Positions 7,466 to 12,142 are shown, counted from the first letter of the stretch. The stretch is DNA of 12,474 nucleotides from Candidatus Methanomethylicia archaeon (GCA_038845975.1 JAWBQF010000050.1:1-12474); one strand, 5' to 3'. The notes: generated from the letters alone by a model not told the origin. Translations and numbers: made by a program.

Positions 7466-7780
7466 ATGGAATATATTTATGCTAGTATGTTGCTTCATAG
7501 TGCTCGAAAGCCTATTACTGAAGAAAGTATTAAAAATATCCTAAAAGCAGCGGATATTGAAGCAGATGATATAAAGGTTAAAGCACTAGTTGCTGCTTTA
7601 AAAGAGGTAAATATTGATGATATTATAAAGTCAGCAACTCTATCAGTTGCAGCCCCAGTTGTTACTCAAGCTACTACAGAGGCAACTACTAGAGTCGAAG
7701 AAAAGAAGGAGGAGAAGGAGGAAAAGAAAGAGGAAGTAGAGGAAACAATGGCCGAGGGATTGGGAGCATTATTTGGGTAG
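7466..7780 (+). CDS. rpl12: 50S ribosomal stalk protein P1 (L12p)
   Basis: MEYIYASMLLH...VKALVAALKEVNIDDII, an Ala/Glu/Lys hinge and the C-terminus GLGALFG. The start is moved from TTG 7451 to ATG 7466 because of the SD and the conserved MEYIYA start. Confidence 0.97.
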   Translation: MEYIYASMLLHSARKPITEESIKNILKAADIEADDIKVKALVAALKEVNIDDIIKSATLSVAAPVVTQATTEATTRVEEKKEEKEEKKEEVEETMAEGLGALFG

Positions 7781-7839
7781 TTTACTGCCTCTATAGTATA
7801 ACTATTTATTGAAAAGAATTGCTCTATAGCTATTACTAG

Positions 7840-7953
7840 TGGTGCGGGGGGTGGGATTTTCAGAAATCTTTTGAACCCACGAACCCCTACGGGACCGGCG
7901 CCTGTAGCACATCATACAGGCCGGCGCCTTTGACCAAGCTTGGCGACCCCCGC
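7840..7953 (-). tRNA. tRNA-Leu (GAG preferred, CAG possible) with two 13-nt introns (anticodon loop; T-loop 59/60) and encoded CCA
   Basis: Acceptor GCGGGGG/CCCCCGC-A-CCA, D arm GCC-AAGCTTGGTCAAA-GGC, long variable arm and T arm GTGGG/CCCAC. The anticodon loop and the T-loop are each 20 nt instead of 7. The T-loop intron (7857-7869) has helix TTCA/TGAA and bulges AA|A and AA|T. Confidence 0.9.
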
Positions 7954-8070
7954 AATATAAGTGAGGAAGTAAGCTTAGTTAAAAAGTTTTCTACATAAAA
8001 TTCATAATCAATTCTTTTGATTTCACAATAAGTTGCAAACACATACATTATAGTCAATTTAAGAATAATA

Positions 8071-8182
8071 TGGGCCCGAGGGGATTTGAACCCCTGACCA
8101 CCCGGTATCTCAAAAATTTATGAGCCGGGCGCTCTAGTCAATATCTGACCTGGCTGAGCATCCCACATATTGGTACGGGCCC
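8071..8182 (-). tRNA. tRNA-Ile2 (CAU) with three introns (9/10, 22/23, 37/38)
   Basis: Removing 8160-8173, 8134-8144 and 8107-8118 gives GGGCCCGTAGCTCAGCCAGGTCAGAGCGCCCGGCTCATAACCGGGTGGTCAGGGGTTCAAATCCCCTCGGGCCCA. The GGG/CCC acceptor start is typical of archaeal Ile rather than Met tRNAs. Confidence 0.9.
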
Positions 8183-8464: not shown

Positions 8465-8792
8465 GGCAGCGGAAGACACCGGCACTCGAAATCTCCATAA
8501 CCACCGTTTGGTAGTCAGCAGTCTCACATCCGCTACCCATGAACGACATGGCCCAGACTTAGGGCCGCTCTATTCCTAGCCTAACCCGTTTCGTCTGTTC
8601 AAGCTTAATCCCTTCCTCCGAAGGGACTAGCTTTGCCATGTCTCCATGGGGCGTGTGATCATAGATGCTTAACTACCTCAGCATGGTCATGGAGAAGCCT
8701 CATGCCGGCTTCTCAGCCCGCCATATAGACCGTTTGCGGTCGGACATATTCCTCAGGGGAGGCCTAGTCCCCCGCCTAAGTCTTCCGCTGCC
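8465..8792 (-). ncRNA. ffs: Archaeal signal recognition particle (7S SRP) RNA
   Basis: 13-bp terminal helix GGCAGCGGAAGAC/GTCTTCCGCTGCC; helix 6 TCCCTTC-GGAG-GAAGGGA; helix 8 GGGTTAGGCTA-GGAA-TAGAGCGGCCC (8562-8587); complementary Alu loops TAGGCC and GGTCTA. It forms a 328-nt GC-rich island. Confidence 0.92.
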
Positions 8793-11215: not shown

Positions 11216-11301
11216 GGGCCCGTAGCGCAGTATGGAAGCGCGCCGGCCTTCTATTTATGGAAGAAAGCCGGCGGTCCGGGGTTCAAATCCCCGCGGGCCC
11301 G
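11216..11301 (+). tRNA. tRNA-Arg (TCT) with a 12-nt canonical 37/38 intron
   Basis: Cloverleaf GGGCCCG...CCGGC-CTTCTA|TTTATGGAAGAA|A-GCCGG...CGGGCCCG. The intron is 11254-11265, with central helix CTTC/GAAG. Confidence 0.95.
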
Positions 11302-11689: not shown

Positions 11690-11791
11690 GCTCCGGTAGT
11701 ATACATAAGCCTTATAGGCTTTGGCAGAAAGTCCGGTCAAGTATAGGGGCCTCTCGAGCCCCAGACCCGGGTTCAAATCCCGGCCGGAGCA
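11690..11791 (+). tRNA. tRNA-Glu (CTC) with a 27-nt insertion in the D arm (13/14 or 14/15)
   Basis: Removing 11704-11730 gives GCTCCGGTAGTATAGTCCGGTCAAGTATAGGGGCCTCTCGAGCCCCAGACCCGGGTTCAAATCCCGGCCGGAGCA, a typical archaeal tRNA-Glu. Confidence 0.88.
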
Positions 11792-11925: not shown

Positions 11926-12012
11926 CGGGCCCGGCGGGATTTGAACCCGCGACCACTCGGTTAAGAGCTACGCCCTATTGTCGAGCGCTCTACCGTGCTG
12001 AGCTACGGGCCC
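11926..12012 (-). tRNA. tRNA-Lys (CTT) with a 13-nt intron at 30/31
   Basis: Intron 11969-11981 (ACAATAGGGCGTA). BHB with outer helix AGAG/CTCT, central helix CGCT/GGCG and bulges CG|A and TA|G. Confidence 0.93.
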
Positions 12013-12042: not shown

Positions 12043-12142
12043 TGGGCCCGAGGGGATTTGAACCCCTGACCTCCTGCGCTTCCTGTTTACTGTATGTCAG
12101 GCAGGTTTCAGGATTAAAGTCCTACCACTAGACGACGGGCCC
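12043..12142 (-). tRNA. tRNA-Val (GAC) with two introns (25/26, 12 nt; 36/37, 16 nt)
   Basis: Intron 12107-12118 has helix TAGG/CCTG and bulges AC|T and AA|A. Intron 12080-12095 has helix CCTG/CAGG and bulges AC|A and AA|G. A TATA box TTTATATA lies at 12163-12170 on the minus strand. Confidence 0.92.

Follow-up and report, generated by a model that had tools for sequence, protein, structure and literature searches.

A probable tRNA-Leu(GAG) gene with an intron inside the anticodon in a hot-spring archaeon of the Candidatus Methanomethylicia

Introduction

When an insertion interrupts the anticodon loop of a tRNA gene, the identity of the mature molecule can depend on the precise base at which the precursor is cut. 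The locus described here raises this question in a particularly direct form: from the gene as it stands in the DNA, which anticodon is made, and is it the only one? The gene is located on the minus strand of a stretch of 12,474 nucleotides (hereafter the window) from Candidatus Methanomethylicia archaeon (GCA_038845975.1 JAWBQF010000050.1:1-12474), a hot-spring archaeon, and its anticodon stem encloses 20 nt, CTGTATGATGTGCTACAGGC (7919..7900, minus strand), in place of the usual 7. A first-pass annotation of the window had proposed that splicing creates the anticodon, that the register of splicing decides the identity of the tRNA, with Leu-GAG as the likeliest outcome, and, as a speculation, that one gene could deliver two leucine isoacceptors, GAG and CAG.

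Short introns located away from the canonical 37/38 position, up to three per gene, have been described for crenarchaeal tRNA genes (Thermoproteales, Sulfolobus, Aeropyrum) in the available portions of two reviews (PMC4090602, PMC4033280), and the site 59/60 is named among the frequent ones in the accessible text of the first (PMC4090602). The borders of such introns are given, in an excerpt of a third source, as lying between residues 2 and 3 of the bulges that flank a 4-bp central helix (PMC4307357), while relaxed hBH/HBh' motifs are stated, in the available parts of two further papers, to be cut by endonucleases of the alpha-beta and epsilon2 types (PMC3239211, PMC3241643). The analysis presented below makes it very probable that the gene in the window is the genome's tRNA-Leu(GAG), that it carries two protein-spliced archaeal introns, one of which splits the anticodon at 34/35, and that a single product results.

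Structure and detection of the gene

The locus encodes a class II tRNA-Leu whose anticodon loop and T-loop each contain an insertion of 13 nt, the one in the T-loop being absent from the first-pass annotation (Table 1). All stems of the tRNA were verified pair by pair, and the features of a class II tRNA-Leu are present in the acceptor, variable, D and T arms alike: a 7-bp acceptor stem, GCGGGGG/CCCCCGC, with discriminator A73; a D arm of the form GCC-AAGCUUGGUCAAA-GGC; a 5-bp anticodon stem, CCGGC (7924..7920) / GCCGG (7899..7895); a long variable arm, UCCCGUAGGGGUUC; and a T stem, GUGGG/CCCAC, that also encloses 20 nt where 7 are usual. The acceptor, D arm and T arm are the same as those of the genome's Leu-UAG gene. 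Once both insertions have been removed in silico, the fully spliced form is an 85-nt cloverleaf that ARAGORN labels tRNA-Leu and that is identical at 73 of its 85 positions to the intron-less Leu-GAG genes of two relatives (G049 and G050). Judged at the sequence level, this spliced cloverleaf, its identity to the genes of relatives and the identical exons of five natural alleles (see below) make the locus a gene and more than a chance resemblance. Boxes that resemble the conserved upstream element, CTTTATAA and CTTTAAAT, precede the other leucine genes of the genome, and we take AAAACTTTTTAAC to be a putative archaeal TATA/BRE element.

Table 1. Features of the tRNA-Leu locus and the other leucine tRNA genes of the genome; positions are those of the window unless a contig of the genome (G000) is given
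Feature	Position	Strand	Description
tRNA-Leu gene, very probably tRNA-Leu(GAG)	7843..7953	(-)	precursor of 111 nt, G1 (7953) to discriminator A73 (7843); mature form of 85 nt with the two introns out
Exon 1, positions 1-34	7917..7953	(-)	acceptor 5' strand, D arm, anticodon stem 5' strand, C32 U33 G34
Anticodon intron, 13 nt, UAUGAUGUGCUAC, between G34 and A35	7904..7916	(-)	relaxed hBH / bulge-helix-loop motif
Exon 2	7870..7903	(-)	A35 G36 G37 C38, anticodon stem 3' strand, variable arm, T stem 5' strand, T-loop 54-59
T-loop intron, 13 nt, AGAUUUCUGAAAA, at 59/60	7857..7869	(-)	strict hBHBh' motif
Exon 3	7843..7856	(-)	U60, T stem 3' strand, acceptor 3' strand, A73
CCA after A73	7840..7842	(-)	CUA in the four other alleles; probably fortuitous
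Promoter-like box AAAACTTTTTAAC (putative)	7978..7990	(-)	26 to 38 nt upstream of G1; identical in 5/5 alleles, flanks vary
Leu-UAA	G000:C30:26128-26258	(+)	apparently two introns, after the D arm and at 37/38
Leu-CAA	G000:C21:27193-27290		gene of the same genome
Leu-UAG	G000:C34:19207-19306		gene of the same genome
Leu-CAG	G000:C5:88251-88346	(-)	D-loop insertion

Because of its two insertions, the unspliced gene is missed by the standard finders. ARAGORN reports three genes in the window and, when run with introns over the whole genome, 25, none of which is at 7843..7953. An Rfam search of the window gave five matches, none at the tRNA-Leu locus; a permissive Rfam search of positions 7700-8100 gave seven, with no tRNA at that locus; and among the 36 matches of RF00005 across the whole genome at E <= 1, none falls on the Leu gene.

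The two introns and the register of the anticodon

The insertion in the T-loop is an ordinary 59/60 intron in a textbook bulge-helix-bulge (BHB). It is the best BHB of the whole precursor, in the strict hBHBh' form, with all four central pairs in place (U54-A, U55-A, C56-G and A57-U), bulges AA|A and AA|U, an outer helix of 5 bp that is the T stem itself, and an inner helix of 1 bp. Its exact register is of no consequence for the product, registers 56/57 to 59/60 all leading to one identical T-loop, UUCAAAU, which is also the T-loop of the genome's other Leu genes.

The anticodon intron is of a different kind, as here each register has its own product. Successive excisions of 13 nt leave the loops CUCAGGC, CUGAGGC, CUGUGGC and CUGUAGC, and ARAGORN labels the corresponding in-silico products Leu-cag, Leu-gag, His-gtg and Tyr-gta; the four outcomes that the first-pass annotation had read from the 20-nt loop (CAG, GAG, GTG and GTA) were thus reproduced exactly, together with their labels. 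The choice between them was approached by scanning the registers with the border rule quoted above, a procedure that had been calibrated on one Leu gene of the same genome and five of relatives, all with canonical introns, and had picked 37/38 in all six. In the 13-nt removal scan, 34/35 is the sole register to pass among eight, with three of four central pairs. Its central helix, GGCC/UGCU, comprises a C32.U mismatch, the pairs C31-G and G30-C, and G29.U; it is flanked on the 3' side by the 3-nt bulge AC|A and by an outer helix, GGCGCC/GGCGCC, of six G-C pairs running from C28-G36 to G23-C41, for which the 3' strand of the D stem is taken. This is the arrangement that had been described in the first reading of the locus for an intron at 7904-7916, including the outer helix, the AC|A bulge and the single central mismatch. 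An inner helix is absent, and the 5' cut (UG|U) falls two bases beyond the central helix, in the loop; the motif is therefore a relaxed hBH, or bulge-helix-loop, as defined in the accessible text of PMC3239211, and not a strict hBHBh', given three of four pairs, no inner helix and a 5' cut in the loop.

The other registers score lower: 33/34, which would give CAG, has two of four central pairs and no outer helix, and the remainder have zero to two. When the T-loop intron has been taken out, ARAGORN with its intron search returns 'tRNA-Leu (gag) i(38,13)', that is, the same register 34/35. Patterns that resemble a BHB often arise by chance in these G+C-rich RNAs, so that the motif alone proves little, and the BHB score was applied only among registers that yield a valid tRNA. 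As a stand-alone detector it was discarded, whole-precursor scans having produced many spurious high scorers.

Leucine tRNA inventory and codon demand

The inventory of leucine tRNAs provides a line of evidence of another sort. The string GCGGGGGT occurs ten times in the genome and begins a Leu tRNA gene in five of them, and exactly five genes of the genome combine the Leu acceptor with A73. UAA, CAA, UAG and CAG each have a gene of their own (Table 1), and an inventory of this type, suggested in the first-pass annotation as a check, leaves GAG as the one anticodon otherwise missing. Searching the genome for GAG anticodon arms that lack an intron returned 14 hits, all of them chance matches outside any tRNA context. 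As completeness of the assembly stands at 93%, the missing part could contain a second GAG gene. Among the Leu codons of 894 long ORFs, CUU accounts for 28.7%, CUC for 5.2% and CUG, the rarest, for 3.1%; CUU and CUC together amount to 34%. For these codons, about 34% of the leucine total, no source of tRNA-Leu(GAG) other than the gene in the window is visible, yet this gene is one that both ARAGORN and the Rfam tRNA model overlook.

Leu-GAG genes of the class

The class to which the host belongs was represented by 62 genomes, and the comparison of Leu-GAG covers 16 genes from 16 genomes, among the loci fetched (L007-L057). All 16 can be read as having the mature loop CUGAGGC, three of them (G014, G049 and G050) being free of introns, and the 3' exon of the window gene supplies the corresponding ...GGC, which is the GAG type. 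The place of the intron varies across the class: 37/38 in six genes, 38/39 in four, 34/35 in two and in the window gene, at or before 31/32 in one, and no intron in three. The Leu-GAG genes of these 16 genomes thereby offer a compact series in which to follow intron gain, loss or sliding at one gene. The motif, the inventory, the 16 relatives and ARAGORN all agree with the earlier proposals that splicing makes the anticodon, that the register sets its identity and that Leu-GAG is the likeliest product. At closer range the sampling is thin, family and order having two genomes each; in the sister genome (62% complete) the Leu-GAG gene is absent from the assembly and, of the Leu genes, only Leu-UAG and Leu-CAA were found.

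Introns at 34/35 elsewhere in the lineage

The 34/35 position recurs in the lineage outside this gene. In the same genome, Arg-GCG (G000:C21:2801-2904 (+)) carries a 19-nt intron at 34/35 in a full BHB, with a central helix scored |||:, an outer helix of 2, an inner helix of 4 and bulges UG|A and AA|C, and Arg-CCG (G000:C10:25224-25319 (-)) an 11-nt intron at 34/35 with a central helix again scored |||: and an outer helix of 2. Each of the two genes also has a canonical 37/38 intron three bases downstream of the first; the motif of this second intron takes proper shape only with the first one removed, which implies a fixed order of splicing. In both Arg genes the central helix is made of G29 G30 C31 C32 of the anticodon stem and the intron end GGCU; in the Arg-GCG ortholog of the sister genome (L245:1501-1604 (-)) the intron end is AGCU, with a mismatch at C32 as in the Leu gene. 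Two genomes of another family (G047 and G048) likewise have Leu-GAG genes with 34/35 introns, of 16-17 nt, with a central helix scored |||: and an inner helix of 3.

These cases share with the window gene a cut between anticodon bases 1 and 2 and a central helix formed by G29-C32 and an intron 3' end that reads (G/A/U)GCU or GGGU, and in all of them the splicing motif must use the anticodon stem itself. They also differ from it: in the Arg genes the central helix is perfect and a second intron, at the canonical site, is present, neither of which is true of the Leu gene, whereas the introns of G047 and G048 have an inner helix but no outer one, and none of these 34/35 introns resembles that of the Leu gene in sequence. 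Taken as a set, three genes in this genome and two genomes of another family add to the natural record of protein-spliced introns located within the anticodon. It can be added that the register again sets identity in Arg-CCG (CCG versus GCG), and that ARAGORN labels the two Arg genes Leu-caa and Val-gac.

Natural alleles in metagenomes

A pattern scan of metagenomes matched 88 stretches, 80 of which were listed as loci (L058-L137). A tRNA filter, requiring a GC[GA]GGGG start within 30 nt upstream, was passed by seven of the 80 loci listed; six of these are this gene, in five distinct sequences, one locus being the window sequence and the rest representing four further alleles, one of them seen twice. 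The remaining locus past the filter, L069, was rejected as a chance match, as were all 96 listed loci of a pattern scan of genome contigs, which are chance matches in G+C-rich bacteria with none past the tRNA filter. In addition, metagenome DNA contigs from three runs show no differences from the window over the parts that they cover, namely 7737-7953 (X2 and X3) and 7737-7922 (X10).

The exons are identical in all five alleles listed, and both introns and both junctions are kept. The anticodon intron measures 13, 17, 17, 17 or 22 nt, its first U and its 3' end, AUG(U/C)GCUAC, being conserved while insertions and deletions are found in its 5' and middle part; the T-loop intron is retained at 59/60 in the alleles, with changes that touch one side of the pairs only. 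As the exons are invariant and the changes in the introns one-sided, the alleles offer no compensatory pair that could be scored as covariation. They do bear on the register, since intron bases 2-3 vary and registers from 36/37 on would consequently give allele-dependent anticodons, leaving only CAG, GAG and GUG as invariant.

Splicing enzymes and proposed maturation pathway

The genome encodes two EndA paralogs (PF01974 genes) and one RtcB. The 183-aa EndA (G000:C1) matches the catalytic chain of the Aeropyrum pernix enzyme, 3p1z_B, with an E value of 4.9e-51, and its alignment has no gaps across the crenarchaea-specific loop, where a Lys occupies the K44 position, the GIDHAPF block also being kept; the 180-aa paralog (C30) is divergent. 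Genes for a catalytic and a structural EndA subunit are accordingly present, the catalytic one with the Lys of the crenarchaea-specific loop, and the pair fits, as far as alignment can tell, a heterotetrameric (alpha-beta)2 EndA of broad specificity and crenarchaeal type. K44 is described in the available part of PMC3241643 as being required for the cutting of bulge-helix-loop substrates.

We infer that the precursor is spliced, and that the shifted fold in which the 34/35 motif appears is the form captured by the enzyme. In the proposed pathway, the EndA alpha/beta pair would cut the precursor and RtcB would rejoin it. G29 G30 C31 of the anticodon stem's 5' strand, with C32, would leave their normal partner and pair with the 3' end of the intron, (U)GCU, and G23-C28 would then pair with G36-C41, three bases off the normal register. 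With this shifted fold, the 3' cut would fall within the 3-nt bulge AC|A, which has a helix on either side, and the 5' cut, UG|U, would lie in a loop, two bases from its start. The joining of CUG to AGGC would generate the loop CUGAGGC, whose anticodon GAG would read CUU and CUC, and no alternative isoacceptor would be expected.

Competing folds and alternative readings

The shifted fold has a competitor. For the window allele at 37 C, the lowest energy predicted for the whole precursor, -48.0 kcal/mol, belongs to the splicing fold, and the rival fold consists of the normal cloverleaf and a hairpin, CUGUA/UACAG, with a 2-nt bulge. A competing perfect hairpin, GCCTGTA/TACAGGC, had been pointed out in the first-pass annotation, and it is indeed found as a 7-bp GCCUGUA/UACAGGC. 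The predicted energy difference (splicing fold minus rival) at 37 C is -0.5 kcal/mol for the window allele and +3.6, +2.0, +2.0 and +1.7 kcal/mol for the other four, and at 75 C it ranges from +0.8 to +2.7 kcal/mol in all five alleles, with predicted pair probabilities of 0.03-0.05 for the central helix versus 0.7-0.85 for the hairpin; in three of the four other alleles the rival hairpin is one pair longer. The hairpin was also considered as the real substrate and set aside by reasoning, any cut in it leading to a loop of 6 or 8 nt or to an anticodon that differs between alleles. The rival fold could thus not be cut into a working tRNA, and it is taken to be a competitor that the enzyme would have to out-bind. 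One could go further and suppose that 34/35 is a recurrent inherited site that serves as a structural switch, the balance of the two folds gating the supply of tRNA-Leu(GAG) by temperature or enzyme. We regard this as an improbable extension of the data; if true, the intron would be a maturation switch on a tRNA that reads a third of leucine codons, and not a passive intron.

RNA data come from one source. A run search listed 21 runs, one of which is RNA (a sediment metatranscriptome), and in that single run no read crosses the Leu gene, the only pieces found being of 34 nt, with two differences and with flanks unlike those of the gene, and belonging to other organisms' Leu tRNAs. The window also encodes an archaeal SRP RNA (8470-8787 (-); RF01857, 129.8 bits), and a 223-nt contig of the RNA run, of high depth, is equal to 8511-8732 within it, with no differences; the host or a near-identical organism is therefore represented in that RNA library, it being understood that an RNA library can also carry DNA.

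The predicted dominance of the rival hairpin at high temperature, the lack of spliced reads in the one RNA run and an assembly that is 93% complete could together be taken to mean that the locus is a decaying, unmatured copy, and that GAG is provided by a gene in the unassembled 7%, or its codons served by wobble reading. Such an explanation is very unlikely to be correct, however, as it does not account for exons that are identical in five alleles though the introns vary, for the conservation of the upstream box, for a cloverleaf that is perfect once spliced, or for the retention of this intron site by Arg genes that look functional in two genomes of the genus.

If the gene is a working one, it could in principle be cut one base earlier, at 33/34, and make tRNA-Leu(CAG). 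The product would be formally valid (ARAGORN calls it Leu-cag), and the junction bases that it requires are conserved in five of five alleles. Nevertheless, we consider it highly unlikely that this is what the gene makes: the register has two of four central pairs and no outer helix, the genome already has a separate Leu-CAG gene, CUG represents only 3.1% of Leu codons while CUU and CUC (34%) would be left without a cognate tRNA, and the resulting loop, CUCAGGC, matches none of the seven intron-less CAG genes, all of which end in A38 (CUCAGGA or UUCAGGA).

The suggestion that both registers are used, so that two Leu isoacceptors arise from one gene, is a bare possibility in that two valid Leu products lie one base apart and the 5' cut falls in a loosely defined loop. 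It has very little chance of being right: CAG requires both cuts to be shifted together, a 3-nt bulge between helices holds the 3' cut in place, the genome already has a CAG gene, and there is no second motif for 33/34. The original speculation about GAG and CAG from a single gene is not supported, in view of the 33/34 motif, the separate CAG gene, the 3.1% share of CUG and a loop, CUCAGGC, that is unlike those of the seven intron-less CAG genes seen.

Finally, cuts at 35/36 or later, with a GUG (His) or GUA (Tyr) anticodon, can be practically dismissed, even though such products receive the label His or Tyr from ARAGORN (which here goes by the anticodon only) and no tRNA-Tyr gene was found in a partial tRNA census of the genome (ARAGORN, Rfam and a T-arm/acceptor scan, in an assembly 93% complete), given that the class II body, G1-C72 and the long variable arm are common to four other Leu genes whereas archaeal tRNA-Tyr and tRNA-His are class I, that these registers have zero or one of four central pairs, and that from 36/37 on the anticodons would differ between alleles.

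The reading of the gene as tRNA-Leu(GAG), spliced at 34/35 to one product, carries a practical consequence, since misplacing the intron by one base leads to the label CAG, His or Tyr, an annotation trap for intron-rich archaeal genomes. Moreover, the five alleles and the competing fold constitute a convenient series of substrates for the study of cut-site choice by a broad-specificity EndA.

Comparison with known systems

The mechanism proposed for the gene is the known archaeal one; what is less usual is the place of the intron, between anticodon bases 1 and 2, which is not claimed here as unreported. The gene resembles the crenarchaeal multi-intron genes, as presented in the available portions of PMC4090602 and PMC4033280, in its strict or relaxed BHB motifs, an alpha-beta EndA and the 59/60 site. 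The lists of positions in the accessible text of the same two reviews (3/4, 20/21, 22/23, 25/26, 29/30, 30/31, 45/46, 53/54, 56/57, 59/60 'etc.') do not include 34/35 (PMC4090602, PMC4033280). The available parts of these and other sources contain no statement either way on 34/35 introns (PMC4090602, PMC4033280, PMC3241643, PMC8450103, PMC4390854), and the position is likewise unmentioned in the accessible sections of PMC2237900, PMC3239211, PMC4307357 and bioRxiv 10.64898/2026.10.13.758758.

Two characterized systems are of particular relevance. In Sulfolobus tokodaii, intron borders of tRNA-Leu(GAG) and tRNA-Met(CAU-1) have been mapped with recombinant EndA, according to the available excerpt (PMC4307357). 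The former is the same isoacceptor as the window gene and likewise has a non-canonical intron in the anticodon arm, the D arm being figured with the anticodon arm according to the legend; however, its intron is described as lying in the anticodon stem, and that of the window gene lies between anticodon bases, a comparison made by description only, on the text available (PMC4307357). In tRNA-Met(CAU-1), a mismatched central helix is offset in vitro by longer flanking helices, as the same excerpt has it, a situation like that of the window intron (PMC4307357).

The second system is the pre-tRNA-Cys(GCA) of ARMAN-2, whose 13-nt intron at 59/60 is reported in the accessible text to have a relaxed hBH (BHL) motif, lacking one bulge, and to be cut in vitro by an EndA of broad specificity (PMC3239211). 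The site is that of the T-loop intron of the window gene, but the roles are exchanged: the 59/60 intron is relaxed in ARMAN-2 and strict in the window gene, where the relaxed one is at 34/35. The endonucleases also differ, being of the epsilon2 type in ARMAN-2, per the same partial source, and predicted to be alpha-beta in this genome (PMC3239211).

Other tRNA genes of the window and genome

Several other tRNA genes of the window are also interrupted. At 8068-8182 (-) a probable elongator tRNA-Met(CAU) is interrupted three times: following position 9, within the D-loop and, by 12 nt, at 37/38; Rfam finds its 3' part only, at 18 bits. A tRNA-Lys(CUU) at 11926-12012 (-) has a 13-nt intron inside the anticodon stem, read as 30/31, and is called Ile or Lys by ARAGORN depending on options. 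The tRNA-Val(GAC) at 12043-12142 (-) combines a 37/38 intron with an insertion after the D arm, the latter being common to Val-UAC and Val-CAC on other contigs, and tRNA-Arg(UCU) at 11216-11301 (+) has a canonical intron of 12 nt and is mislabelled '???' or SeC by ARAGORN. A tRNA-like sequence at 11718-11791 (+), called Glu(CUC), is matched weakly by Rfam (36 bits) and has an odd acceptor/D region (GCUUUGG..., with cmscan mismatches); it may contain a further unrecognised insertion or be degenerate.

In the genome as a whole, 25 tRNA genes were recovered by ARAGORN, 29 by Rfam over the cut-off and 30 by the T-arm/acceptor scan. Many tRNA genes of this genome are interrupted by two or three short insertions each, 11-13 nt being a frequent length.
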